DNA from: a virus
Lineage: Duplodnaviria; Caudoviricetes
Strand: one strand, 5' to 3'
IMG/VR virus record: IMGVR_UViG_3300009082_000005
Coordinates: 1 to 55,640 of that record
Length of the DNA stretch: 55,640 bases
Below are positions 179-55,640 of the stretch, piece after piece. Made by a program: the position numbers and the translations under genes. A model generated the notes under the pieces. It saw nothing but the letters and a program-made list of their open reading frames with translations. It ran no database searches and was not told the origin of the DNA. The number at the start of each line of letters is the position of its first letter. The first letter of the stretch is position 1.

Positions 179-385
179 TTGTATAATAATAAGCAAGATA
201 GAATAAGAAGCAAAGCTGTTTGGGTATCTGTAATAAGTTTAATATTACTTATATTTAATAGCTTTGGAATATTTGAAAAAATTGGTGCAGATGAAACAGC
301 TTTTAAAACTATTTTTGAGATGATATTAACCATCCTAGTCGGCTTTGGAATCCTAAATAATCCTACAGATAAAGAAAATTTCTAA
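179..385 (+). CDS. Holin (phi LC3-like, two TM helices)
   Basis: RIRSKAVWVS start, two hydrophobic segments, GILNNPT C-terminal motif, AGGAGG RBS, follows endolysin across the junction. Confidence 0.85.
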   Translation: MYNNKQDRIRSKAVWVSVISLILLIFNSFGIFEKIGADETAFKTIFEMILTILVGFGILNNPTDKENF

Positions 386-391
386 AATTAT

Positions 392-420
392 TTGACATTA
401 TAATTTAGTTATTATATATT
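392..420 (+). promoter_or_regulatory. SigA-type promoter of the non-coding cassette
   Basis: TTGACA (392-397), 17 nt, TATATT (415-420); no ORF follows on this strand. Confidence 0.7.
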
Positions 421-422
421 GT

Positions 423-559
423 TTATGTAAGTTTCAATCTTTGCAGTACCATCCATTAAAACAAGGATTGAAACAAATTTAAACTACTCCGTAAGGAGAC
501 GAAAACACTATAATTTATAATTTAATCCCCGTAAGGGGACATGATTGAAACTTACATAA
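423..559 (+). ncRNA. Candidate RNA of three stacked CRISPR-repeat-like units enclosed by a 17-bp inverted repeat (Racr-like)
   Basis: TTATGTAAGTTTCAATC (423-439) / GATTGAAACTTACATAA (543-559); units end in AAAACAAGGATTGAAAC (474), CTCCGTAAGGAGACGAAAAC (506), CCCCGTAAGGGGAC (540). Confidence 0.65.
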
Positions 560-650
560 TAATTTAGGTGCACTCTAGATTGTTATTGTAAAAGGTCTTA
601 CGTCACAGGGTATTTTTACAAGTTAAATGCTAGTTAACAATCGTTCTTTA

Positions 651-690
651 AAAAAAGTTCTCTTTTATTTATGCCATTGGGAACTTTTTT
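651..690 (+). terminator. Terminator-like hairpin
   Basis: AAAAAAGTTCTC ... GGGAACTTTTTT. Confidence 0.5.
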
Positions 691-702
691 GTTATATATG
701 GC

Positions 703-734
703 AAAAAAATAACCAGGTTACCTGGTTATTTTTT
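703..734. terminator. Bidirectional intrinsic terminator
   Basis: AAAAAAATAACCAGG-TTA-CCTGGTTATTTTTT between convergent units. Confidence 0.8.
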
Positions 735-1032
735 ATATTATATTTGTATTTTTTACTTTAGCTTGAAATGTTATTGGGTATTGGCTATCTACAATACCCT
801 CTATCAGTACATTCAATTCTCCTGCTATGTCATAGATGTCTAAATTTTTATATATCATTTCTTCATATTTAGAGCCTTTTTTGAAATCTTTTACATACCA
901 TTTTCCATTTTCAAATTTATTATAAGAATAATTATCCATGATTACATGTCCATCATATTCTTTGATTATGTCGTCTATTATGCCTAATAAACAATCTCTG
1001 AAAAACGATTTTTTATTTGTCATCTTCTTCAC
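733..1032 (-). CDS. Hypothetical protein
   Basis: 99-aa ORF with upstream GAAAGGG, end of leftward operon. Confidence 0.6.
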   Translation of the reverse strand: MKKMTNKKSFFRDCLLGIIDDIIKEYDGHVIMDNYSYNKFENGKWYVKDFKKGSKYEEMIYKNLDIYDIAGELNVLIEGIVDSQYPITFQAKVKNTNII

Positions 1033-1268: not shown

Positions 1269-2033
1269 TTATATATCAAATTTTGTCCCAGATAAATCTA
1301 TTTCTCTGTCATTTTCGTCGATGTATATATTTAATGTTTTAGTATTCTCATGTCCAAGATACTTTCTTAATAGTTCTTTTCGTTCTTCTTCACTTTTAGC
1401 AGAATATCTTAGATTAATAGTTTTTGCGGCCACTTTTCTTAATTTATGTGTTTTAAACCCTAAATTCCAGGCTTTTACTCTAAGAGTGCTCTCAGAGTAA
1501 AACATAATGCCTTTTCTTTCTTCAAGGTTTTGGAGTTCTCTAGATAACCAGGCATCTTTTAGAATCGTCGATACTTTCCTACTTTTTCCGCCCTTAGAAT
1601 CTCTTACAGTTACAAATACTTTTCCATCTTTAAATTCTATATCATTTTTTGTAAGTTTTGAAACTTCCCCTATTCTCAGGCCCGCCAATTGTTGAAGTCG
1701 AAAAGCTAATTTAATTCTTTTATTTTTTATAGCATTTATTTTCTTATTTACTGTAGATATTTTTGTAATAGTCTTTGCAGATCTTTTTTTAACTGTTTTT
1801 TTCTGCATATCAGATAATTCATTGATATTTTTATGAAAATATATATCATGAAACTTATAATAATACTTTAGAGCGTTTTTAGTTTGACATATGTATTCCT
1901 TACTTTTGCCTTCTAAACTATTATTTCGATAGAATTTTAGTCTATTGTAATATGTTGTTGCTGTCTGTTTTGATATTCCTTTTTTATTTAGATATTCAAG
2001 ATACTCATTTTTAGTCAAAAAAATATCCTCCAT
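1269..2033 (-). CDS. Tyrosine recombinase (Xer-like, short)
   Basis: AGLRIGE, SKGGKSR, HKLRK, LGHENTKTLNIY catalytic motifs; short SAM-like N-terminus. Confidence 0.9.
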   Translation of the reverse strand: MEDIFLTKNEYLEYLNKKGISKQTATTYYNRLKFYRNNSLEGKSKEYICQTKNALKYYYKFHDIYFHKNINELSDMQKKTVKKRSAKTITKISTVNKKINAIKNKRIKLAFRLQQLAGLRIGEVSKLTKNDIEFKDGKVFVTVRDSKGGKSRKVSTILKDAWLSRELQNLEERKGIMFYSESTLRVKAWNLGFKTHKLRKVAAKTINLRYSAKSEEERKELLRKYLGHENTKTLNIYIDENDREIDLSGTKFDI

Positions 2034-2219
2034 TTCGTTCCGTCACTATAAAAAAATATATCAGGTGGTCGGCTACCCCTCCCACCTATATATATATTAT
2101 ATATAGTGATAACCGTTATTTTTTTTATAATGCTCTATCTATTGTTAATAGTAATATTTAGGTATTTATTTTATTAATGAGTAAAGCTGTTGTCAATTAC
2201 TTTTATTTTTATTTGTCTT

Positions 2220-3407
2220 TTAATCCAGCTCTATATCTATAGTTTCAATATCATTTTCAATTTCTGTATTCCCTTTTACAATTTTCAAATCATTTTTGGC
2301 TAATTTTTTATTTTTAATTTCAGATAATGTTTCCTTATCCCAGAAAAAAACCTGTGTTTCAATAAAATTAGTACCTTGCATTACTATTGCCCTTCCCTTG
2401 ATGTCTTGAAGCTCACTAGCTATTTTACTATTTAAAACTATACTACTAGTCGTATGTATAGATTTAAAGCAGACACGCCCGCCGAACTGGTCACGTGTTT
2501 GACCTTCGAGAATATTAACGTCTGGTCGTTGAGTTCCGCAAATTAAATTTACCCCAAACGCACGCCCTAACCTTGCAATAGATTTAATATTATTCTCGAT
2601 ATCCTTTTTCAATTGCTTTACTTCCTTTTCAGATAATCCATCAACCTCAAAAATCTCCATTGCTTCGCCTAACTCATCGATAAATAGATATTGCCTTTTT
2701 AAATTTTCCCCTGTAAATTGGTTATATTCCTGTAAGTTTTCAGCTCCTATATTTATAAACAGTTGTTGCCTTATCTTAATTTCTTTTCTAAATTGCAGTA
2801 ATACATTAAGTAGTTCTGTATGTTCTGTTATTACATCTGCTTTATTCATAAATCTTATTGTATCTACTCCACCCTTAAAATCTGCTACATAACATCTGCA
2901 ACCATATTTTAAACATTGAAATACTATTAACTGTATCAATTTTGTCTTACCAGTTCCGGGCATCCCTCCAACTAATAAATTAGAATTTACATTAAAGTCT
3001 ACAGTAATTAATTTACCTGTTTTAATGTCTTTTCCAATGTTAAATATTCCGTCTTTAATGAGATATTTATTATCCCACTTTATAATATTTTCTAACTCCA
3101 TCATCTTTCTAGCTCTTTCTTTACTTTCAATTACCCGTTTTAGTCTCAAAATTTCATTTTCTTGTGATTTTCTTTTCTCAGTATAAGTAACTTTGCCTAT
3201 AATCCAAGCTGGCATTTTAAAAAATATATAATATGGCATCTTCAATATGATCATAAAAGTTTCCCATTGTTCCTCATTTTCTTGGTGCCTTTTTCTTGAA
3301 AACTCTATATCTGCAATTTCTTGCTTATCAAGAGTTTTTTTATTTTGTTTTTGTTTTTCCTCGTATAGTTCCATTTTAGATTTATTATTTTCCATATCAC
3401 ACCTCAA
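2220..3407 (-). CDS. FtsK/SpoIIIE-family ATPase (TraB/TcpA-like)
   Basis: Walker A GGMPGTGKT, ADFKGG, Walker B LFIDE, ARLGRAFG, TQRP, KGRA; no gamma domain. Confidence 0.92.
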   Translation of the reverse strand: MRCDMENNKSKMELYEEKQKQNKKTLDKQEIADIEFSRKRHQENEEQWETFMIILKMPYYIFFKMPAWIIGKVTYTEKRKSQENEILRLKRVIESKERARKMMELENIIKWDNKYLIKDGIFNIGKDIKTGKLITVDFNVNSNLLVGGMPGTGKTKLIQLIVFQCLKYGCRCYVADFKGGVDTIRFMNKADVITEHTELLNVLLQFRKEIKIRQQLFINIGAENLQEYNQFTGENLKRQYLFIDELGEAMEIFEVDGLSEKEVKQLKKDIENNIKSIARLGRAFGVNLICGTQRPDVNILEGQTRDQFGGRVCFKSIHTTSSIVLNSKIASELQDIKGRAIVMQGTNFIETQVFFWDKETLSEIKNKKLAKNDLKIVKGNTEIENDIETIDIELD

Positions 3408-4378
3408 TTTAATTCAATTTCGTTAATTACAAATGTCTTATTTTTAGTTGTTTCAATAAATCCTTGGTTAGTTAACTCCCTTTTTGCTGACTGTATTATG
3501 CTTTTTTGAAGTCCAGTTATTTCAACCAGCTTTGGTATGCTTGGAGATACTCCATTTACTTGATTTTCATTTATAGCTTTTTTTACAATTTCTATTTGCT
3601 CATTATTTGCCTTGACAAATTCATAAGGTTCTTTATTTTCTAAATCACTGTCATATGTTAATTTATTGTTTGAAGTATTTGCCTTGACAAATGATTCACT
3701 GGATTCATTATTTAATAATTTTATTTCTTTGTTCATTTCTACAATTTTTATATCATCATGTTTATCAACTTTTACACCTACAACCTTTTTATGTAAGTTA
3801 TCAATCACACGCTCAGGTATAACAGTTACAATTTCCTTTATTTTTTCAAAGTTTGTTTCTGCTGAAGATATTTTATTTTTTCTATCCATGTCCTTTTCAA
3901 GAAAGAGAACCGGAGCAAGCATAGGAAGAAATATAATAAATGCTTCAACCAAAATTGATAGAGACATAGTTGATACAAACTGAGCAAATTGTAGTGGTAT
4001 AATTTTAAGTATAGGAATATATGTATATAAAAGAGTTACAACATTACTAGCAGGTGAACGTTCTATTTCTCCACCACTCATGAAAAAATACATTGATGCC
4101 ATAATTGATAAGAAAAAACAAATTTTAAGATAATATAATACTTTCTTTTCTCTTTTTATATCCCTGTACTGCATAAATGGATAACTAGCAGCTAATATTA
4201 TTTTTATAAATTCAAGCATTCCTGCTAATCCACCCATTGCCCACATATTCCATCCTGTCTGGCTCTGTGCATAAAATACAATTGAAAAATATCCAGATAA
4301 AATTGCTAATAATAAAGCACTTATATAACAAATAACTGCAAAAAATACTTTTGGTATAGTTATAAAAAACTTCTTCAT
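3404..4378 (-). CDS. Four-TM membrane protein with C-terminal winged-HTH-like segment
   Basis: Likely start MKKFF at 4378, overlapping the upstream stop; four hydrophobic helices; PSIPKLVEITGLQKSIIQSAKRELTNQGFI looks like an HTH. Confidence 0.7.
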   Translation of the reverse strand: MKKFFITIPKVFFAVICYISALLLAILSGYFSIVFYAQSQTGWNMWAMGGLAGMLEFIKIILAASYPFMQYRDIKREKKVLYYLKICFFLSIMASMYFFMSGGEIERSPASNVVTLLYTYIPILKIIPLQFAQFVSTMSLSILVEAFIIFLPMLAPVLFLEKDMDRKNKISSAETNFEKIKEIVTVIPERVIDNLHKKVVGVKVDKHDDIKIVEMNKEIKLLNNESSESFVKANTSNNKLTYDSDLENKEPYEFVKANNEQIEIVKKAINENQVNGVSPSIPKLVEITGLQKSIIQSAKRELTNQGFIETTKNKTFVINEIELN

Positions 4379-4563
4379 ATCTTCACCCCATATAACATTA
4401 ATATTTTCTTGATTGCTTTTTCTGATGTAATTTTCCCAGAAAGAAAATTTCTGGTAATTATTCTTCCTGCAATTGAAGGATAACAATTTTCAATTGCCAA
4501 TGTTCCAGCGATATTTCTTTCTATAAAAAAGATTTCTTGATTTGTTAATGAAATTTTATTCAT
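4375..4563 (-). CDS. VbhA-family (Fic) antitoxin-like protein
   Basis: 62 aa; TLAIEN matches the (S/T)xxxE(G/N) Fic-inhibitory motif; GKITSE helix-hairpin; GAAGGGG RBS. Confidence 0.65.
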   Translation of the reverse strand: MNKISLTNQEIFFIERNIAGTLAIENCYPSIAGRIITRNFLSGKITSEKAIKKILMLYGVKI

Positions 4564-17534: not shown

Positions 17535-17543
17535 ATTTTTACC

Positions 17544-17813
17544 TCAATTTCTATTAAAATCATTTTTATTTTTTACAGTATAACTTATATTATAATTTTC
17601 ACCAGTAATTTTTAGAATATTATCTACTATTAAAGAATTATATCTAGTTTCTAAAATTCCTTTTGCAAATTCAGTCGGAACTTCCAAAATAATATTATTA
17701 TGATCAACTTGTAAAGGTATAATTGTCTTTATCCATGTGTTAAAGCTTAGTTCTGATAATTCATTTTTCAATAAATTTAATAATTTTGCCCATAAATCAT
17801 TCAATAAAACCAC
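17544..17813 (-). CDS. Stand-alone DnaA N-terminal domain (domain I) protein
   Basis: LW...L..LK.ELSELSFNTWIK.I.P......IILEVP.EFAKGILE.RY..LI; stops after about 86-89 aa; likely TTG start 17804 after AAGGAG. Confidence 0.85.
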   Translation of the reverse strand: MVLLNDLWAKLLNLLKNELSELSFNTWIKTIIPLQVDHNNIILEVPTEFAKGILETRYNSLIVDNILKITGENYNISYTVKNKNDFNRN

Positions 17814-18005
17814 TCCTTATTTATAAAATACATAAATATTATATACAAAATTTCCTATAATTTAAATTTAGTTAATCGAATAAGAAAAACAAAGCATACT
17901 TGCAAGAAAACAAGTAATGTATTGCAAATGTCAATACAAAGTCTCTTAATCGTGATTGACTTTATAACCAAGTACAACATAAAATTATAATAAAGTGAAT
18001 GGAGA

Positions 18006-18224
18006 GTGATATTTTTGGATAAAAATATTTTGTCAAAAGTTTTAACACTGGCTCAAGTTTCTGAGAAAATAAATACAACAAATCAAAATTTATATGATTT
18101 TATTGATAGGAACAGAATACCAACATACTTGTATGAATACAAAAAAGCAGATAAGCAAAAGAGAGGAGTGTATATATTCCATATTGATTTCTTAGAATAT
18201 TATGAAAAGAATCTAAAAAAATAA
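18006..18224 (+). CDS. Small HTH DNA-binding protein (excisionase-like)
   Basis: VLTLAQVSEKINTTNQNLYDFI; 72 aa; followed by terminator hairpin. Confidence 0.55.
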   Translation: MIFLDKNILSKVLTLAQVSEKINTTNQNLYDFIDRNRIPTYLYEYKKADKQKRGVYIFHIDFLEYYEKNLKK

Positions 18225-18273
18225 ACCTTACTAGGTTTTATTTTTTTTGTAATATAATTGTTATAATATTATA

Positions 18274-18302
18274 TTGACACTTTGTTGCAAGTAAGTTATA
18301 AT
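18274..18302 (+). promoter_or_regulatory. Consensus SigA promoter
   Basis: TTGACA (18274-79), 17 nt, TATAAT (18297-302). Confidence 0.85.
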
Positions 18303-18309
18303 TATAAAT

Positions 18310-18423
18310 GTAAGATGGTTGCTACGAACAACCACCTTACTGAGAAATTCCGGTACGATGTATACTAAAATCCCTAACTAATATTTAGTATACATCGTAC
18401 CTCCAAAAAAATCAATGGAGGTA
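18310..18423 (+). other. Structured 5' leader with 18-bp perfect inverted repeat and anti-SD hairpin
   Basis: GGTACGATGTATACTAAA (18352-69) / TTTAGTATACATCGTACC (18384-401); TACCTCCA (18398-405) pairs with TGGAGGTA (18416-23). Confidence 0.65.
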
Positions 18424-18430
18424 TTTTATT

Positions 18431-18580
18431 ATGTCAAATTATTACATGGAAAACATTGAAGGGTACGAAATGATTCCAGATTGGTACGCAGAGGAATTAG
18501 AAGCTCAAGAATTTGAAACATATCTTAAAACATCAGGTTATTACAACAGTTTTATTCCAGAAATGGAGGTGGCTGCTTAA
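18431..18580 (+). CDS. Small acidic protein (49 aa, not in ORF track)
   Basis: GGAGG RBS; MSNYYMENIEGYEMIPDWYAEELEAQEF...EVAA. Confidence 0.65.
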   Translation: MSNYYMENIEGYEMIPDWYAEELEAQEFETYLKTSGYYNSFIPEMEVAA

Positions 18581-18754
18581 ATGTCAAAATACACAATAAT
18601 ATCAAATAGATATATGAAACTTAGAAAATCCCTTATGTTGAAATGGAACATAGGAAAAATAAAAACACACAGATTCCTAAATACAGGTAATAAACTTTTT
18701 ATAAGGGAACAGGCAGAAAAGAGAATGGCATTAAACAGTTTACTAACAAAATAA
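18581..18754 (+). CDS. Small basic protein (57 aa, not in ORF track)
   Basis: GGAGGTG RBS; MSKYTIISNRYMKLRK... Confidence 0.55.
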   Translation: MSKYTIISNRYMKLRKSLMLKWNIGKIKTHRFLNTGNKLFIREQAEKRMALNSLLTK

Positions 18755-18801
18755 ATGAGAGGGTTTAAACCCTCTCTAAAATAAAATTTCTGGAGGTTAT
18801 T

Positions 18802-39410: not shown

Positions 39411-40517
39411 GTGAAAAATTTGGCTAATACATTTGAAGGAAGAATAGCGGAAATTGAAACATCTGTAACACAGGTAACAAGTTCAGCGTCTTCCATAGCT
39501 TCTAGTGCAACAGTTCTTGATTCTCTTGTTACTGCACAATCAGGTAATGTAAGTACAATAGAAAGTACTGCATCAACAATTGATAGTTCAGCAAGCATAA
39601 TGGAAAGTGTTGCAAGTTTAGTTGATAGCATTGGAACTGAGCAAGATACAATAATTTCTAATGTTTCAACTGTAGATAGTAAAGTAGTAGTAAATAGCAC
39701 ATCAGTAAGCACTGTAGATTCAAAAGTAGTTGTTGTTTCTACAGCAACAAGTACAGTAGATAGTAAATTATTATCTGTGAACACTGCTCTATCTGGTGTC
39801 GTTTCTGTAGCAGATTCCAAAGTTGTATCTACAGCAAACAAAGTTGATAGTACAGCAGTTTTAGTTTCAACATGTGATTCGAAAGTTGTAAGTGTTAATA
39901 CTGCCTTAAGTACAAGCATAAGTACTGCAAGTAGCAAAGCTACAGTAAACAGTACATCAATAAGCACAGCAGATTCAAAAATAGTTGTTGTTTCTACAGC
40001 TTTAAGCACATTAACTGGCAATTTAAGTACAGCAGATAGTAAAATAGTAATAGTTGATAGCAAGATAGTTGTAAATAGCACATCTATAAGCACAGCTATT
40101 GTAAACATATCTACATTAGATAGTAAAGTAGTTGTTGTTGATAGTGTAGCAGATGCAATTGTTACAGCTGTATCTACAGTTGATTCCAAGGTCGTAATAG
40201 TAGATAGTGTAGCAGATGCAATTGTTACAGCTGTATCTACAGTTGATAGTAAGATAGTAATAGTTGATAGCAAAGTAGTTGTAAATAGCACATCGATAAG
40301 TACAGCTATTGTAAACATATCTACAGTAGATAGTAAAGTAGTTGTTGTTGATAGTGTAGCAGATGCAATTGTTACAGCTGTATCAACAGCTGATAGTAAG
40401 ATAGTAATAGTAGATAGTGTGGCAGATGTAATTGCCGTTGATACTGCTACAATTATAAGCACTTTGGCAGTATTAAGTGCTGCTATAAGCGTTGTAGACA
40501 GCAAAGTAACTACCTAA
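39411..40517 (+). CDS. Ser/Thr/Val/Asp-rich heptad-repeat fibre-like protein
   Basis: 7-residue units such as VSTVDSK/VVVNSTS; no Pro, Trp, Tyr, His; GAGGTG likely serves as RBS for TTG 39420. Confidence 0.8.
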   Translation: MKNLANTFEGRIAEIETSVTQVTSSASSIASSATVLDSLVTAQSGNVSTIESTASTIDSSASIMESVASLVDSIGTEQDTIISNVSTVDSKVVVNSTSVSTVDSKVVVVSTATSTVDSKLLSVNTALSGVVSVADSKVVSTANKVDSTAVLVSTCDSKVVSVNTALSTSISTASSKATVNSTSISTADSKIVVVSTALSTLTGNLSTADSKIVIVDSKIVVNSTSISTAIVNISTLDSKVVVVDSVADAIVTAVSTVDSKVVIVDSVADAIVTAVSTVDSKIVIVDSKVVVNSTSISTAIVNISTVDSKVVVVDSVADAIVTAVSTADSKIVIVDSVADVIAVDTATIISTLAVLSAAISVVDSKVTT

Positions 40518-49686: not shown

Positions 49687-52538
49687 TGCCTTGGCTATAC
49701 AGTAATACAGAATATCCAGACGAACCAGCCAGTTATGAATGGCGTGGAGTAAATACATATAACCAACATTGTGCGGCGATTGGTAGTATACCTGCTAATG
49801 CTGCTATAACTCAATTAAGAGCTTATGCAGCTGGCAGGACAAGTGCAGTGAATACTTATTTAGTACTCTGGTCTGCTGGCGGAAGTGTAATAAAATATTC
49901 TGCTCAATTTTCTATGGCTGCTGGAACTGAAACCGGCGGTGGACAAGCATGGCAAACAAAGTCTATTACAGCGATAAAAGTATCAGGCGGAACTTACTGG
50001 GTAGGTTTATATAGAAATCCATCAGGAGGGCATATTTTTGGGCGGCCAAGTTCTCCGGGTGCAAGTGCTTACCAAAAAACAAATACATCAAGCTTTCCAA
50101 GTGTTTCATCAATGTCTGGATATAGTACAGATTCAGGCGACGAGGTAACGGTTGGATTATTTTATATTACTGCGCCCGATGACCCAACAAGTGCAAGCGT
50201 AACAAGGACAAGTGATACAAGGCACACAATAAGCTGGACAAGAAATGCAGATTCAGACAAGCCAGTTTATAATCAGTATGTACAGCGTTATGACAATGTG
50301 TCAGGAACATGGGCTACAATAGCAACAATAACAACAGATTATACAACAAATGGAGCACAAAGTTATACAGATACTACAACAGTAGCAAATAAAAGATATA
50401 GATACAGGGTTTATGCAAATAATACTTCTGGTAATTCTGGATATGCTTATACAGATTATATAAGGACTACTCCTGCTGTACCTACAAGTGTTGTCGCAAC
50501 GAGGTCAGGCAGCAGTGTAATAATTACATGGAATGACAATGCAACAGCAGAGACAAATCAAACTATACAAAGAAAAACAAGTGCTGATAATGTAACATGG
50601 GGTAGCTATTCCACGTTGTCAAGTGCAATTGCAACAGATACAGAAAGCTATACAGATAACAGCCCAGCAAATTATAACAAATATCAGGTAAGGGCAGACT
50701 GTACAGATCCAACATTAAATAGCTCATATGTTGAGTCTGATGTTGTAATAATAATTCAACCACCATCAGCACCAACGAGCTTAATTCCAAGTGACTCAAC
50801 TGCAATTGATGCAGATAATGCTTATACATTTAGCTGGACACACAATTCATTAGATGGCACAAGTCAGTCTAAATTTTCACTTCAATATAGAGAACAGGGC
50901 GGAGCATGGCCTGGAACTCCACAATATAATGAAACAGCAAGTACAGATAATTTTGTTGAAATTGCTGGAAGTACTTTTACAAATGGAACAACTTACGAAT
51001 GGCAAGTAAAAACATGGGGTCAACATGCAACTGCTGGTGATTGGTCTGATACTGCAACATTTGTTGCAAGTACAACACCAGTAACAACAATTACAGACCC
51101 AACAGAAATAACAAATTATGCTTATAGTAGTCTTGAAGTTGATTGGGATTATACACAGCCAGATTCATCAAATCAGGTTGAATATATTTGTAGTTTATAT
51201 GATTCTAGTGATACATTATTGGAAACTTTAACAGAAAATACAGATATAGCAAATGGTGGAAGTGATACGGCAGTTTTTACAACTGCACTTACAAACAGTA
51301 CAACTTATACAATTATATTATTAGTTAAAAGTGCTGCTGGTTTGTGGTCTGCTGAAAATGAAGTAACATTTACTACATCATTTTTAGAACCAACTACACC
51401 AGTTATTACGCTTCTTGAAAATGCTGACATTGGTGGAGTAAATATTTCTATTACGAATCCAGCAATTGAAGTTACTTATACAAAAGATTCAATGCAAGAC
51501 ACTTATATAAATAGTACATATTCAGCAGCAAATTATAATGATAATGGTCAGCTTGACTTGATTGATGATACTGGTGGTGGTACAGACAAAAGTATTATTT
51601 TATTAGATTTTGATTTGTCTGAATTCACAGGAGATACAATAGTTAGTGCATACCTTTATTTATACAGAAAATATGCTTTGACTCCTGGTATTGATAGCAC
51701 AATTAATTATATAAAAACTTCTTTTGATGAAACAACTGTTACTTATGCCACAATACCAACACTTGATACAACTGACCACGACGACCATACACATAGTGCT
51801 GGTGATAGTGAAGTGTGGGATTTAGCCACATTAGTACAAGACATTTGTGATGGAGATATTACAGATTATGAAGGTTTAGCAGTTGTGGCAACAACAACAG
51901 ATGGCAGCGCCGATTATTTTTATGATAGTACAGTTGTTGGAAGTGAACCTGAATTAATTATAGAAATTTCACCAAGAAATGCTGAAACAACAAGCAATAA
52001 AGTATATAGGTCTGTAGATGGTGGAGCGTGGGAACTTGTTAGTGAAGATATTCCAGTAAATACTACTATTACAGATTATTTGCCTAACATAGGTGGAAAT
52101 ACTAATTATTATGCTGAGGCTGTAAGTGCTTTACCATCAAGCAAAAATAGTGCAGAGGTTGACATAGATATAAACCATACAGGATATTACTACCTAAATG
52201 GTGGAAATGGGTATGAAGATTATATAAAACTTAGAGGCGACACTTCTATAGGCGAGCAATTTGGAAGGGAAACAAAACTTAAGAAATATCATGGTAGAGA
52301 TTATCCAGTTAAGCATGAAGGCGAAAACAAAACACAAATTATTGTTTTTAGTTGCGATTTGCCAAAAGAAGACTTTGTAACTGTAAAAAATATTATAGAA
52401 ACAGCAGGAAATCATTTTTACAGAAGTTATGAAGGTGATTATTTTCAATGTGGTATAACAAATCCAAATAAAAAAGATAAATCAAATCAATCATATCAAC
52501 TATCATTGACTATAGAAAGGGTTGATAATAGTGGATAA
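49686..52538 (+). CDS. Large distal-tail/adhesin protein with fibronectin-III and DNRLRE-like domains
   Basis: Repeated P..P...ISW...YTDT...Y.YRV.A units; QDTYI...LL.FDLS...IVSA.LYLY...E..VTY; follows TMP. Confidence 0.75.
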   Translation: MPWLYSNTEYPDEPASYEWRGVNTYNQHCAAIGSIPANAAITQLRAYAAGRTSAVNTYLVLWSAGGSVIKYSAQFSMAAGTETGGGQAWQTKSITAIKVSGGTYWVGLYRNPSGGHIFGRPSSPGASAYQKTNTSSFPSVSSMSGYSTDSGDEVTVGLFYITAPDDPTSASVTRTSDTRHTISWTRNADSDKPVYNQYVQRYDNVSGTWATIATITTDYTTNGAQSYTDTTTVANKRYRYRVYANNTSGNSGYAYTDYIRTTPAVPTSVVATRSGSSVIITWNDNATAETNQTIQRKTSADNVTWGSYSTLSSAIATDTESYTDNSPANYNKYQVRADCTDPTLNSSYVESDVVIIIQPPSAPTSLIPSDSTAIDADNAYTFSWTHNSLDGTSQSKFSLQYREQGGAWPGTPQYNETASTDNFVEIAGSTFTNGTTYEWQVKTWGQHATAGDWSDTATFVASTTPVTTITDPTEITNYAYSSLEVDWDYTQPDSSNQVEYICSLYDSSDTLLETLTENTDIANGGSDTAVFTTALTNSTTYTIILLVKSAAGLWSAENEVTFTTSFLEPTTPVITLLENADIGGVNISITNPAIEVTYTKDSMQDTYINSTYSAANYNDNGQLDLIDDTGGGTDKSIILLDFDLSEFTGDTIVSAYLYLYRKYALTPGIDSTINYIKTSFDETTVTYATIPTLDTTDHDDHTHSAGDSEVWDLATLVQDICDGDITDYEGLAVVATTTDGSADYFYDSTVVGSEPELIIEISPRNAETTSNKVYRSVDGGAWELVSEDIPVNTTITDYLPNIGGNTNYYAEAVSALPSSKNSAEVDIDINHTGYYYLNGGNGYEDYIKLRGDTSIGEQFGRETKLKKYHGRDYPVKHEGENKTQIIVFSCDLPKEDFVTVKNIIETAGNHFYRSYEGDYFQCGITNPNKKDKSNQSYQLSLTIERVDNSG

Positions 52539-53625
52539 CAGTATATTTACAGGCAATAGATATGAAACATGGAAATTTGAAAAATTAATCTTGGCTAATG
52601 GTGAATATGTCCATGGCGGCTGGATAACTGAATATATAGAAGATGCAAGTATAAGCATAGATTTTGAAAGGGATATAAGTGGTACAGCCAAATTTAAAAT
52701 TGATAATTCTTTAGATATAGATTATTTAGCAGACAGGATAAAAATATATTATTGTTTATCTGGTTATGAATTTCCTTTAGGTGTGTATATGCCATTGCAG
52801 TCACCACAACATTTTCAAGATACAGATGTTACAAGAAATATACAGGCATATGACCAATTAAAAGCTTTAGAAGATGACAAAATAACAACATCTTTCTCAA
52901 TTGTTTCTGCTTCTGTGATTACAGATGAAATAGAAAGTGTATTAAGTGGTGTTGGAACATGGGTAAAATATAACGTTGAACCTTCGACAGAAACTTTGCC
53001 AGCAGACAAAAGTTATGAAATAGGTACAAGCAAATTATTTATAATAAATTCTCTTTTGAATATGATTAATTATTATCCTATATGGGTATCTGGAAATGGT
53101 GTATTTCGTGCAATTCCTTGGAATTCTGTACAAAATATAACATGGTATTTTCAAGGTGATTCATTGAATTTATATGAGCCTGATGTAACAAGAGATACAG
53201 ACTACACAAACGCTTACAATAAAGTATTAATAATTGCTAATCAATTGTCGAGTTCTGCAAATTTATATAAAGAATGGAGCATGGAAGATGAAGGAATAGA
53301 AACTCATCCATTTTCCTATACTAATATAGGCAGATATGTAACAAAAGTATTTTACAGTGAAGCAAGCAGCCAAGATTATGTCGATTTAAGGGCAATAAGA
53401 GAAATAAGAAAAATGATGGAACTGGCTGAAACTATAGATTATCCACACGCTTTTATTACGTCAAGGGAAAATGATGGTTTACCTTATCAGGGTGACCATT
53501 TTAAATTTAAAAATACTGAATTAAGCATAGATGAAACTTATAAAATTATTAGACATGACTGGAATTTAAATGTCGGACAAAGTGTAATTAGCAAAATAAG
53601 GAGAGTAACAGAACCGCAGACATGA
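52522..53625 (+). CDS. Baseplate hub/tail protein
   Basis: FPLGVY, AYD.L..L, IN.LL..INY, NKV; position. Confidence 0.7.
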   Translation: MIIVDNSIFTGNRYETWKFEKLILANGEYVHGGWITEYIEDASISIDFERDISGTAKFKIDNSLDIDYLADRIKIYYCLSGYEFPLGVYMPLQSPQHFQDTDVTRNIQAYDQLKALEDDKITTSFSIVSASVITDEIESVLSGVGTWVKYNVEPSTETLPADKSYEIGTSKLFIINSLLNMINYYPIWVSGNGVFRAIPWNSVQNITWYFQGDSLNLYEPDVTRDTDYTNAYNKVLIIANQLSSSANLYKEWSMEDEGIETHPFSYTNIGRYVTKVFYSEASSQDYVDLRAIREIRKMMELAETIDYPHAFITSRENDGLPYQGDHFKFKNTELSIDETYKIIRHDWNLNVGQSVISKIRRVTEPQT

Positions 53626-54320
53626 GTATATATGATTATATTTTAAATAAAAATACTGGACAGCAATTTTATACTGGTACAGTAATAACATTAAACCCAT
53701 TGACTGTAAAATTATTTGATGATGATACAGCAATTCCAGTTGTGTCTACATCAAATTTAACTGGTACAATTATTGGATCTAAATTAATTTTTACTAAAAT
53801 TGGTAATCAATTTTTTGCTATTGGAATAATTAATGATTATGTAGCAAATCCTCAATATATTAGAAAAATTAATAGTCAAGATTTTAGCAATACATCATAC
53901 ACAGACTCAACTAATATGGTAGTTACAATTCCTGGTGATGGAAATTATTATTCTGTAGATGTTTGGATTGTAGCATGGTCATCATCGGCAACTCCGCAAA
54001 TAAAAGTAGCATGGACAGCAAGTGGAGGAGCCTACGAAAATACAAGTTATAGAATTTGCACTGGGTTTGATGGTGATGGAGCCGCCGACGCTTCTGGAAG
54101 GATACAAAAATCAGGTGTTTACTTAATTACTGATGGAGTAAGATATCCAGTAAATGATACAACTCCTGATGAGAGTGTAATTAAAGAGCATTTTGTTGTT
54201 AAATGCACTACATCAACAGCAGCAGTTTTTCAAATGACAGCGGGTCAATATACGTCAAGCGGAACTAATGTAACAATGTCAGGTGCTAGTCATATAATTA
54301 GAACTAAATTATATGAATAA
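53622..54320 (+). CDS. Tail spike/receptor-binding protein
   Basis: OB-like N-terminus (GTV...NPL.V) plus beta-sandwich C-domain. Confidence 0.6.
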   Translation: MSIYDYILNKNTGQQFYTGTVITLNPLTVKLFDDDTAIPVVSTSNLTGTIIGSKLIFTKIGNQFFAIGIINDYVANPQYIRKINSQDFSNTSYTDSTNMVVTIPGDGNYYSVDVWIVAWSSSATPQIKVAWTASGGAYENTSYRICTGFDGDGAADASGRIQKSGVYLITDGVRYPVNDTTPDESVIKEHFVVKCTTSTAAVFQMTAGQYTSSGTNVTMSGASHIIRTKLYE

Positions 54321-54361
54321 ATAACAAAAATGCATATTAAATTTTGAATGGAAGTGTAATT

Positions 54362-55180
54362 ATGATTGATTCAAGCGGATTAATAAATGTAAAAGAAATA
54401 TATGGAACTCCTGTAATTGTTGATATATTGCCTAAAAAATCAAACTATTCTAATTGGGTAAAAAAAGATAATGAATATTTGACAAACCACAATACTGGCA
54501 ATAGTTCTAAAGGTGCAAATGCTTTGATGCACGCAAATTATTTAAAAAATCTCACTGAAAAAAAGAGCTGGCATGTTACAGTTGATGATAAATATATAAT
54601 TCAACATTTACCTTTGAATGTTAATGGATGGCATTGTAGCGATGGCGTCGGCTCTGATTCTGGAAATATGAATAGTATTGGTATAGAAGGCTGCATGAAT
54701 TCAGATGGAAATTGGCAAAAAACCAGATTGAACATGATTAAATTTGATGTTTTTTGCATGAATAATCTGCCTAATTTAATAGGAGACAACTGGAAAAAAA
54801 CAATTGTCCCACACAAACACTGGTATAATAAAAATTGTCCAAGTGTAATACTGGCTGAGTCAGGTGGATTTGATAAATTTGTTGCTGATTGTATAAATTA
54901 TAATTTAAATCTAAGCAGCATAAAAAATAGTTCAGATGAAGAATATATAAAAATATTAAAGTTGGTTTCTCCAGTATATTATAATACATGGATTCCTTTC
55001 ATTGAAAAATATCACGTAGAAGGAATGTTGAATGTAAAAGGTTTGGTTAAAGCTATATTTGAATACAATTTAAAAGAATTAGAAAAATCAAAAATAGATT
55101 ACTCAGAATTGAAAAATAAAATAAATAAAATAAATAAACTATGGGATGAATATAATGAAAAATTTAAATCAATTGCTTAA
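54362..55180 (+). CDS. Endolysin, N-acetylmuramoyl-L-alanine amidase (Amidase_2)
   Basis: HNTGN, SWHVTVDD, GWHC.DG, N..SIGIE, PHKHW..KNCP. Confidence 0.92.
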   Translation: MIDSSGLINVKEIYGTPVIVDILPKKSNYSNWVKKDNEYLTNHNTGNSSKGANALMHANYLKNLTEKKSWHVTVDDKYIIQHLPLNVNGWHCSDGVGSDSGNMNSIGIEGCMNSDGNWQKTRLNMIKFDVFCMNNLPNLIGDNWKKTIVPHKHWYNKNCPSVILAESGGFDKFVADCINYNLNLSSIKNSSDEEYIKILKLVSPVYYNTWIPFIEKYHVEGMLNVKGLVKAIFEYNLKELEKSKIDYSELKNKINKINKLWDEYNEKFKSIA

Positions 55181-55493
55181 ATTGCCTGTGCTGGATTATA
55201 AAAATAGTTTAATAGATAAATCTAATTTTGAAAAAAATCAAATAGATAAAATTCTTGAAGAGATAGAAGAATTTGAAACTGAAAAAGACTATCTGAAAAA
55301 ATGCTGTGAATGTTTGGACGTGATCCAGGTTTCATTTTCTTTATTAGAATTATTTAATCAGGATATAATTGACCAGGCATGGAGATTGCATAATGAAAAA
55401 CTTAAAAAGAAAAAGAGTTTTGAAATAAAAGGAATTTTTGAAATATTTCAGATTTGCAATAGAATAAAATTACAGGAGAAAACTAATGAATGA
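55146..55493 (+). CDS. MazG-like all-alpha NTP pyrophosphatase-like protein
   Basis: Q..KILEEIEEF...ECLDVIQ...H.EKL. Confidence 0.6.
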   Translation: MNIMKNLNQLLKLPVLDYKNSLIDKSNFEKNQIDKILEEIEEFETEKDYLKKCCECLDVIQVSFSLLELFNQDIIDQAWRLHNEKLKKKKSFEIKGIFEIFQICNRIKLQEKTNE

Positions 55494-55640
55494 GATACTA
55501 ACATTTGTTACAAATAACGGTATAGCTGTTGTTTTGATGTTTTATTTTCTTAAAAATAATCATAGAGCAATGACCGACTTATTGAAACAAAATGCTGAAT
55601 TAATTAATGAAATAAGAGATATAAAGCTTGAACAAAAAGA
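55486..55640 (+). CDS. Holin-like single-TM protein (65 aa), continues through the junction to position 166
   Basis: GGAG RBS; MNEILTFVTNNGIAVVLMFYFLKNN...KNTG; TAG at 164-166. Confidence 0.75.
   Translation, partial: MNEILTFVTNNGIAVVLMFYFLKNNHRAMTDLLKQNAELINEIRDIKLEQK

Follow-up and report, generated by a model that had tools for sequence, protein, structure and literature searches.

Stacked CRISPR-repeat mimics within an inverted repeat of a Bacillota phage: a candidate multivalent RNA anti-CRISPR

Layout of the cassette and the repeats it resembles

The DNA considered here is the virus record IMGVR_UViG_3300009082_000005, a complete record of 55,640 bp with 28% G+C, which was analyzed over its full length (the window); its first 123 bp are repeated at its end, and the matches of its proteins lead to phages of Bacillota. 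Directly behind the holin gene, in an accessory locus between the lysis genes and an integrase gene, lies a non-coding cassette of three units (A, B and C) that resemble the repeats of clustered regularly interspaced short palindromic repeat (CRISPR) arrays and are enclosed by the arms of an inverted repeat (Table 1). A sequence-only reading of this DNA had proposed a TTGACA-17-TATATT promoter, a region free of open reading frames (ORFs), three units with their letters and a perfect 17-bp inverted repeat, and all of these were recovered at the positions given in the table. No ORF of at least 30 aa was found in 392-626 in any frame.

Table 1. Positions of the cassette elements and of neighboring features in the window
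Feature	Position	Strand	Remarks
Sigma-70-like promoter (predicted)	392-420	+	TTGACA 392-397, 17-nt spacer, TATATT 415-420; 11/12 match
Left arm of the 17-bp inverted repeat	423-439	+	TTATGTAAGTTTCAATC; includes GTTTCAATC (431-439)
Unit A, full-length mimic of a 37-nt CRISPR-DR7 repeat	438/439-474	+	weak hairpin ATCC/GGAT; tag ATTGAAAC
Unit B, type III-A-like repeat mimic	475-506	+	5' AAATTTAAACTA; hairpin CTCC-GTAA-GGAG 487-498; 8-nt tag ACGAAAAC 499-506
AT-rich linker between B and C	~507-511/514	+	most variable part among relatives; substitutions at 508, 509, 512 and 514
Unit C, second type III-A-like unit	512/515-551	+	AATTTAAT, hairpin (T)CCCC-GTAA-GGGG(A) 526-539, tail ACATGATTGAAAC
Right arm of the 17-bp inverted repeat	543-559	+	GATTGAAACTTACATAA; overlaps the tail of unit C
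Non-coding, structured, variable tail of the predicted transcript	560-702	+	terminator-like hairpin and T-run at ~667-700
Bidirectional intrinsic-terminator-like palindrome	704-734		between the cassette and the converging minus-strand genes; also in the related phage
Holin gene	179-385	+	directly upstream of the cassette; Pfam Phage_holin_1 and PHROG holin families
Amidase endolysin gene	54344-55180	+	followed by small ORFs, then the holin gene
99-aa ORF	733-1032	-	no known family; converges on the cassette
62-aa ORF		-	no known family; converges on the cassette
Small tyrosine integrase/recombinase gene, 254 aa	1269-2033	-	Pfam Phage_integrase, E = 7e-12; PHROG integrase families
FtsK/SpoIIIE-like ATPase gene		-	beside the 254-aa tyrosine integrase gene, in the converging module
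CRISPR array of the phage itself	15693-16047	-	six repeats of 30 nt, five spacers of 34-36 nt
Cas12f-like/TnpB-like gene, 423 aa	16263-17534		Cas12f1-like TNB domain; beside the array of the phage itself

The promoter-like sequence is the best such site in 1-1300; it follows the holin stop directly and ends 2 nt before the stem. Sites matching the consensus at 11 of 12 positions or better are no more frequent in the window than in Markov simulations (7 against 6.05 +/- 2.55), and the case for a promoter therefore rests on its place and orientation. The predicted transcription start at ~425-430, which is 5-9 nt past the -10 box, falls inside the left arm; therefore, the stem that had been proposed at 17 bp holds as a DNA feature, while in the RNA a stem of ~10-15 bp is predicted.

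The two arms are perfectly complementary over their 17 bp, with 103 nt between them. Among the 13 inverted-repeat pairs of the window with arms at most 200 nt apart, three are perfect and at least 17 bp long, and the pair at 423-439/543-559 is the sole one of these three with a long interval; from base composition, ~0.013 perfect repeats of this kind would be expected. The RNA of positions 421-565 has a predicted fold of -37.3 kcal/mol (z = -6.28, matched by none of 200 shuffles), in which the outer stem closes a loop carrying the tetraloop hairpins CTCC-GUAA-GGAG and (U)CCCC-GUAA-GGGG(A). Additionally, the GTTTCAATC portion of the left arm is able to pair with GATTGAAAC either at 466-474 or at 543-551. 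This choice of partners had been anticipated in the sequence-only reading, with the correction that the alternative pairing with unit A extends over 13 bp (431-443/462-474) rather than 9 bp. In the nascent RNA of positions 427-476 the alternative hairpin reaches a predicted -14.2 kcal/mol (z = -4.8); it masks the tag of unit A and is incompatible with the outer stem.

Unit A matched the Rfam family CRISPR-DR7 (RF01320) with 39.4 bits against a gathering score of 37, over model positions 1-37 and with E = 1.7e-4 for the whole window, and it is the only match at Rfam curated thresholds in the whole window. The species-genome collection has at least 120 loci with an exact copy of the last 24 nt of unit A, most of which show multiple copies ~73 nt apart. 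Among the matches listed, these loci span Methanosarcina, Bathyarchaeia, Cloacimonadota, Desulfobacterales and Clostridia (e.g., Herbivorax, Tepidibacter, Anaeromicrobium and Clostridium liquoris); the first 13 nt of the 37-nt A-type repeats vary from array to array, and the best match to the upstream 20 nt of unit A was 11/20. Judged by its letters, the 5' part of unit A is in keeping with the variation pattern of the DR7 family. In the three A-type arrays whose surroundings were checked, the neighboring genes were cas7b/cas5b/cas3 of type I-B (L050), cmr2 of type III-B (L096) and a csm5-like gene (L033).

A closer environmental counterpart came from X2, one of four public DNA sequencing runs (X1-X4) whose contigs were aligned to the stretch 150-1100; X2 holds 76% of the sampled words of this stretch. 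One of its contigs, 107 nt long, carries two copies of 443-474 (with 0 and 2 mismatches) that lie 44 nt apart, and the array repeat of this contig agrees with unit A as far as eight letters into the variable 5' part, a match seen in none of the genome loci with the unit A 24-mer among the matches listed. A host array in the same habitat could account for the two-repeat contig but is not proven by it. The 24-mer was also found in 15 other viral loci (L182-L196), as solitary units in nine and as two-repeat mini-arrays in six, and these are candidate RNA anti-CRISPRs (Racrs) or mini-arrays of the DR7 family in unrelated viruses. Apparently solitary repeats of the DR7 family, away from arrays, were observed in several bacterial and archaeal genomes as well (e.g., L063, L097, L099 and L135), and the one in L097 starts with TTTGCAGTA, as unit A does. 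An A-like match in genome G340, a single 37-nt unit on a 1.8-kb contig, was set aside as uninformative.

Unit B carries the feature expected of type III-A repeats, a short G+C hairpin directly followed by a 3' 8-nt tag of the form ACGRAAAC. A metagenome scan with its last 20 nt (the exact 20-mer and two variants known from relatives) led to 21 loci. Arrays ending in these 20 nt were found in L166 (seven repeats, three of them exact) and L172 (4/4 exact), and unit B starts with an AATTTAA-like motif as the repeats of these two arrays do. In six further loci (L156, L157, L161, L167, L174 and L175), a 36-nt repeat that ends in CTCCG(T/C/A)AAGGAGACGGAAAC and matches unit B at 19/20 positions forms arrays of 25 to more than 100 copies with a period of ~76 nt; L171 has the same repeat. 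Cas genes beside these metagenomic arrays were sought in the fetched flanks of L156 and L166, which held housekeeping genes only.

In a sample of 401 genomes from the class of genome G001 (Clostridia), the last 20 nt of unit B occurred with at most two mismatches in seven. One of these, G066, has a 17-repeat array of GTTGCAATTAGCGCTCCGTGAGGGGACGAAAAC, which matches unit B at 18/20 positions and has the same tag; the array abuts a type III-A operon comprising cas6, csm5, csm4, csm3, cas10/csm1 and csm6. The remaining six genomes have single matches in coding-looking DNA, and a reversed control of the pattern likewise gave single matches in seven genomes of the same sample. The handles of units A and B had been attributed to class 1 systems, and the cas genes agree with this, as A-type arrays lie beside type I-B, type III-B and Csm genes and the B-like array lies beside a type III-A operon; of the narrower suggestion of a type III or I-D form for units B and C, the type III-A part was upheld through G066, while nothing pointing to type I-D was found.

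The hairpin-plus-handle form proposed for both of these units applies in full to unit B; unit C has an authentic hairpin and no authentic tag. Unit C reads ATGATTGAAAC where natural repeats read GGAAAC, and these letters are the tag of family A displaced by 5 nt as well as the first half of the right arm. The 17 nt AATCCCCGTAAGGGGAC of unit C (AAT, the hairpin and AC) are present exactly in array repeats of the viral contigs L197 and L198. A scan of viral sequences for the B/C family gave 20 loci, many of them arrays or two-repeat mini-arrays with repeats reading ...AATCCCCGTAAGGGGACGGAAAC. The 14-mer CCCCGTAAGGGGAC of unit C was found in 3 of the 401 genomes of the class sample and lies within arrays in two; in the array of G170 it is followed by GGAATC, and in G340 it belongs to a degenerate repeat that closes an array otherwise made of CCCCGCAAGGGGACGGAAAC repeats. 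A lone CCCCGTAAGGGGACGGAAAC unit was also noted at L203:9936-9955, in AT-rich and apparently intergenic DNA of a viral contig, and may be a solitary type III-A-style repeat mimic.

Units B and C can be aligned with each other (AATTTAA, a 4-bp stem, GTAA, the stem and AC) with a local score of 13 that none of 500 shuffles reached. The difference between their stems is compensatory (CTCC/GGAG against CCCC/GGGG), and the two units lie 42 nt apart from start to start. Unit A aligns with unit B with a score of 6, no better than shuffles, and is unlike both B and C. The stack therefore consists of two repeat families and not three: the description as three different mimics was right as to the mimicry, with all three units resembling known repeats far better than chance, and wrong as to the number of kinds. 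Similarly, of the three units said to abut, A and B do so with 0 nt between them, and B and C are separated by 5 nt (507-511). The absence of any likeness between the units and the 30-nt repeat of the phage's own Cas12f-like array, which had also been claimed, was confirmed on both strands (shuffle fractions of 0.09 to 0.90); the nearest cas-like gene lies ~15.7 kb from the cassette, and the repeat of its array is unrelated to units A-C.

Both kinds of repeat were seen together in one genome. Among 47 non-archaeal genomes, represented by 50 loci picked from the listed loci with the unit A 24-mer, the Bacillota metagenome-assembled genome G816 has both an A-type array and an 11-repeat C-type array of GTTTATAAACCCTCAACCCCGTAAGGGGACGGAAAC, which ends in CCCCGTAAGGGGACGGAAAC and contains the hairpin of unit C followed by AC. 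Therefore, both repeat families can serve one cell.

Relatives, variants and an unrelated stack

The cassette is present in a related phage, IMGVR_UViG_3300009009_000017 (loci L008, L020 and L022), to which the metagenome contig L164 is identical over 4,832 nt (L020), and in contigs of three further metagenome runs; a blastn search of GenBank phages and PLSDB plasmids gave no match to it. Over positions 150-558, the window and the related phage differ at six sites (C462T, A477T, C484T, G501A, T509C and T514A), all of which lie within 462-514, and the approximate probability that all six would fall within one 53-nt span is 2e-4. The holin gene, the promoter, the arms and the three hairpin stems are kept in the related phage, where the change A559T opens the last pair of the outer stem (16/17 bp kept) and the fold of the cassette RNA has z = -5.89. 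Homology stops at the right arm, beyond which ~30 unrelated nt replace 560-702, and resumes at the shared terminator.

The public DNA runs added further forms of the cassette. A contig of X3 (150-709) has one change in the cassette, T492C, which turns the loop from GUAA to GCAA and thus still leaves a GNRA loop, while its positions 588-679 carry 10 substitutions and 4 indels. Three forms were seen in X4: the first has C484T, G501A, C508T, A512C and T514A, the second has T492C, and the third, a more distant one, lacks the 11 nt of 441-451 and is changed at 421 and 424. In X2, A539G converts the closing pair of the hairpin of unit C from U-A to U.G. Across all variants, 13 sites in 421-559 are variable, and the core stems contain one of these, at which the pair is kept (P = 0.016). 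Two of the variant forms are also natural polymorphisms of array repeats: CTCCGCAAGGAG is the main form in L156, and AAAATAAGG is found in one repeat of L102.

The degree of identity between the window and the related phage is uneven. Positions 1-522 are 98.9% identical, whereas the adjacent tail and lysis genes (51123-55640; L020/L164) are ~87-88% identical, suggesting a recent exchange of the block made up of the holin gene and the cassette. The sequence-only reading had suggested looking in related phages for the same bracket around different units. The search of viral loci for the arm returned L008 as the sole relative, and it carries all three hairpins. The bracket was also considered as a mobile element in its own right and rejected as such: the 17-mer arm occurs in 16 viral loci, and 15 of these are single sites in coding-looking DNA, which leaves L008 as the one true relative.

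A second stack was detected among the single matches of the metagenome scan with unit B, in an unrelated AT-rich element on the 40.7-kb metagenome contig L159 and on L162, which have 548 nt in common at 99.8% identity and diverge just past a terminator. At L159:1741-1840 (minus strand) and L162:400-500, an A-like unit ATCCATAATAATAAGGATTGAAAC lies within a 12-bp bracket AATCTATGCAAT/ATTGCATAGATT and matches the conserved part of unit A at 20/24 positions; 47 nt past it, a B-like unit CTCCGCAAGGAGACGAAAAC lies in a terminator-like bracket AAAAAAAGACTTGC/GCAAGTTTTTTTT. Global alignment with the cassette of the window showed no homology outside the units. Mimics with the ATTGAAAC tag and the ACGAAAAC tag, each closed by a stem, are thus combined both in the window and in L159/L162, so that this pairing arose or was kept in two backgrounds. 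The neighbors of the L159 stack are small ORFs, two with weak PHROG matches, and one stretch is like the genes at 29.1-29.4 kb of the window; from these, a mobile element is likely and is not shown. A blastn search with the L159 cassette against GenBank phages and PLSDB plasmids gave only weak AT-rich matches (E of at least 0.1). Just upstream of the L159/L162 units, two 17-nt direct repeats (ATGCGATAATAAACAAT, twice) were observed that look operator-like. Patterns of an A tag followed by a B/C tag were additionally sought in IMG/VR, giving one chance match in G+C-rich coding DNA at a distance of 15-45 nt and none at 46-76 nt.

Proposed interpretation as a decoy RNA and its alternatives

On balance, and with considerable room for doubt, the cassette is probably a multivalent Racr-like decoy RNA that acts against class 1 CRISPR systems and is carried by a temperate Bacillota phage. 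The anatomy of the sequence, the mimicry of repeats, the cas types beside matching arrays and the recurrence of the stack in relatives and in one unrelated element are observed; transcription, processing, Cas binding and inhibition by the cassette RNA are the steps that this reading would add to them.

The closest known counterparts are the viral solitary repeats behind promoters that bind Cas6 and Cas7 and block interference (Racrs; Camara-Wilpert et al., Nature 2023, PMC10651486), and the earlier suggestion that solitary phage repeats can act in this way agrees with that work. The systems described there as tested are I-F, I-E, I-C and V-A, and a text search of the paper gave no mention of III-A, III-B or I-B (PMC10651486). 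As in Racrs, the mimics occupy an intergenic site of a phage at a distance from cas genes, a predicted promoter immediately precedes them, and the proposed action is the same, with Cas6 and effector subunits bound into aberrant complexes. In contrast to Racrs, the cassette is not solitary, since it stacks three units of two families in 113 nt (439-551) and has a long closing stem, and its families are of the I-B/III type and the III-A type. The SRUFinder pipeline of that paper treats full matches less than 100 bp apart as arrays and removes them (PMC10651486); therefore, stacks of repeats may be filtered out by design.

Two other kinds of viral RNA unit are comparable. Cracr arrays are described as placing several CRISPR RNA (crRNA)-like units on one viral transcript and are proposed to disable more than one CRISPR-Cas system; in the available text their repeats are of one subtype (I-C, I-E or I-F), and their pseudo-spacers match cas or toxin promoters, the criterion being at least nine matches proximal to the protospacer-adjacent motif in a cas or creT promoter (10.1101/2024.10.29.618823). 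The cassette likewise has several CRISPR-like RNA units in one viral transcription unit, but it is essentially spacer-free, mixes families and has gaps too short for a Cracr-type pseudo-spacer. Virus-borne mini-arrays, as far as their published description was available, consist of identical repeats with one or two true spacers between them, and these spacers target related viruses (PMC11656645). The cassette shares with them the presence of host-type repeats on a virus without cas genes to match, and DR7 mini-arrays do occur in other viral contigs, but in the cassette spacers are lacking and the repeats are unlike.

The near-identical repeats and ~30-40-nt spacers of a CRISPR array or mini-array are likewise absent, with gaps of 0 and 5-10 nt, A and B unlike and B and C diverged. 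With respect to the repeat families themselves, unit A lies above the gathering threshold of RF01320 and unit B shares its hairpin and 8-nt tag with type III-A ACGRAAAC repeats; these families are defined as array repeats, whereas here they stand once each on a phage, with B shortened and C tagless. A search of the open-access literature gave neither an account of spacer-less stacks that mix repeat mimics of different families nor a tested RNA anti-CRISPR against type III or type I-B. New here are the mixed repeat families, the near-absence of spacers, the combination of type III-A with I-B/III as putative targets, and the closing stem.

In the proposed mechanism, transcription would run from ~425-430 to the terminators at ~700 or 734, and the ~10-15-bp stem would clamp the RNA into a loop displaying unit A and the GNRA-capped hairpins of B and C. 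Cas6 cuts arrays 8 nt before the repeat end. Host Cas6 enzymes would bind the mimics and may cut them; a cut 8 nt short of the end of unit A, together with one at the base of the unit B hairpin, would yield pseudo-crRNAs with the authentic 5' tags ATTGAAAC... and ACGAAAAC..., in which the neighboring mimic takes the place of a spacer. The product of 467-498 would comprise the tag ATTGAAAC with the 5' part and hairpin of unit B; that of 499-538 would comprise the tag ACGAAAAC, an 8-nt linker and the 5' part and hairpin of unit C; a third product would be a tail lacking a proper tag. Of these, the first two would resemble spacer-less intermediate crRNAs. Either the cut RNAs or the whole transcript would then occupy Cas6 together with Cascade, Csm or Cmr subunits in guide-less complexes, and type I-B and type III interference would fall, as with solitary-repeat Racrs. 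Unit C, with its true hairpin and without a true tag, would serve as a Cas6 sink only and as the 3' half of the clamp. The outer stem may just stabilize the RNA and present the hairpins, and a timing role for the alternative 13-bp hairpin is possible and speculative.

Several results weigh against the decoy reading. With regard to the units, B is ~4 nt short at its 5' side compared with natural 36-nt repeats and differs from them on that side as well, and in unit C the tail ACATGATTGAAAC replaces the tag ACGGAAAC, so that the type III-A tag is lacking there. In Rfam, units B and C gave nothing significant, the best scores being partial matches of 14.7 and 10.9 bits against a gathering score of 38. 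For the A-like unit of L159, the DR7 score of 21.6 bits (E = 0.058) is below threshold. On the side of the host, none of the genomes searched has all of the matching arrays together with a related prophage; unit B (at most three mismatches) and B/C-type repeats are absent from G001-G005, and a sample of 401 genomes from the family of G001 contained none with B/C-type repeats; samples such as these do not prove absence. The spacers of the fetched arrays gave no convincing match to the phage. The sequencing runs matching 150-1100 include no RNA run and are uninformative on expression.

Comparisons also weigh against it. A second repeat type nearby was seen on inspection in 0 of the 15 other viral loci with the unit A 24-mer, and such stacks are known from one phage lineage and one unrelated element only. 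When the whole predicted fold is considered, 3 of the 13 variable sites fall at paired positions, which is marginal (P = 0.057); two of these three are at the end of the outer stem, and one preserves its pair. Moreover, a recent exchange of the holin-cassette block, and not selection, may explain part of the conservation, which weakens the argument from it.

The alternative that fares best among those considered, and is nevertheless unlikely, is that the cassette is an inert, decaying relic: illegitimate recombination or imprecise excision would have brought in pieces of host arrays (terminal or degenerate repeats), and the promoter and the stem would be there by coincidence. The shortened unit B and tagless unit C are reminiscent of degenerate repeats at array ends, for example those that close the arrays in L156 and L177; the clustering of the six substitutions in A/B between otherwise near-identical copies could mean relaxed constraint, and the block may simply have been exchanged recently. 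However, host arrays do not juxtapose two repeat families without spacers, and a perfect 17-bp bracket (0.013 expected) with a near-consensus promoter 2 nt before it would be an unlikely accident. The hairpin stems are, in addition, intact in all variants found, and the unrelated L159/L162 pairs A-like and B-like units too, each of them bracketed.

Slightly less probable still is a guide-bearing hijack RNA, either a mini-array or Cracr-like, in which the stretches between the tags would be short pseudo-spacers that steer host effectors to a cas or toxin promoter, or to a competing phage, rather than merely sequestering Cas proteins. Viral crRNA-like arrays with shortened spacers are described as reprogramming Cas proteins (10.1101/2024.10.29.618823), and the related units B and C, given their start-to-start distance, look like a degenerate two-repeat mini-array; two-repeat mini-arrays of family A also make up 6 of the 15 other viral loci. 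The gaps in the cassette (0 nt between A and B, 5-10 nt between B and C) are nevertheless too short for any known guide, and each tag precedes another repeat and not unique sequence. The cases given in the available text of that work have identical repeats of types I-C, I-E, I-F and V-A, and they are neither of type III nor mixed (10.1101/2024.10.29.618823).

It is improbable that unit A or the whole palindromic cassette is instead a DNA recombination site, that is, an attachment or resolution site of the nearby tyrosine recombinase, through which the phage could integrate into host CRISPR repeats and disrupt the array. The Racr paper mentions a suggestion that viral solitary repeats serve for integration into arrays (PMC10651486). 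The position of the cassette between the lysis genes and the integrase gene is one where the phage attachment site (attP) often sits, the 17-bp repeat reaches upstream of the likely RNA start, so that part of it is meaningful only as DNA, and unit A is identical to an environmental array repeat over 32 nt. A core-type site has inverted binding sites flanking a 6-8-bp overlap. The arms of the cassette, 103 nt apart, are unlike such a site, and the three units of two families and the inward-facing promoter would be left unexplained. The collections searched yielded neither a prophage junction nor a prophage copy, and L159/L162 has two separate brackets, one of which is a terminator. Least probable of all, and very improbable, is a role for the cassette at the lysis-lysogeny junction, either as a structured regulatory small RNA or as an element for processing or stability, with an incidental likeness to CRISPR repeats. 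This would suit the strong fold conserved in the window and its relative (z = -6.28 and -5.89), the two GNRA tetraloop hairpins and the alternative 13-bp hairpin, which could act as a switch. Exact identities of 24, 20 and 17 nt to array repeats of two families are unexpected of such an RNA, however, and no other Rfam family matches. Each of these alternatives accounts for less of the anatomy of the cassette than the decoy reading does.

If the decoy reading is true, its consequences extend beyond this phage. Within the sources available, RNA anti-CRISPRs have so far been known as single mimics, each directed against one system; the cassette would mean that phages multiplex RNA decoys across CRISPR types, and it would be a first candidate for an RNA that inhibits type III systems. 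Its stem-clamped loop of Cas6 hairpins would also be a compact design with which several CRISPR systems could be shut off at once, and the cassette would point to a blind spot, as pipelines that demand solitary repeats would discard such cassettes. A more far-reaching version of the decoy reading is put forward tentatively as a joint proposal. In this version, phages would build multivalent, modular anti-CRISPR RNAs with a stem as chassis and a loop of changeable Cas6-binding mimics, so that one short transcript disarms several class 1 systems across the host range, type III among them, and spares the phage's own class 2 (Cas12f-like) system; the 13-bp hairpin would hide unit A until the right arm is transcribed, giving a co-transcriptional release of the decoy, the fast-changing A/B segment would track variants of host repeats, and solitary-repeat pipelines would miss such stacks.

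Other features of the phage record

Downstream of the cassette, the stretch 560-702 forms a second structured non-coding domain with nested hairpins and has no Rfam match. The 99-aa ORF that converges on the cassette was considered as a possible anti-CRISPR protein gene, and searches of Pfam, PHROG, PDB and Atlas gave no lead. Beyond it, positions 1269-4486 (minus strand) encode the 254-aa tyrosine recombinase, the FtsK/SpoIIIE-like ATPase and a 360-aa ORF without a family match; this module resembles a Xer/FtsK-type resolution module, and the phage might therefore persist as a plasmid instead of integrating.

Adjoining the Cas12f-like gene, positions 17535-18801 form a 1.27-kb region without any ORF of at least 90 aa. 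The only promoter of the window that matches the consensus at 12/12 positions lies inside this region at 18274 (plus strand), as does a perfect 18-bp inverted repeat (18352-18369/18384-18401), and the region could encode a trans-activating CRISPR RNA (tracrRNA) or another non-coding RNA. Elsewhere in the window, a 368-aa ORF at 39411-40517 contains tandem and dispersed repeats with periods of 63 and 84 nt (40028-40434 and 39669-40025) and looks like a repetitive structural protein.

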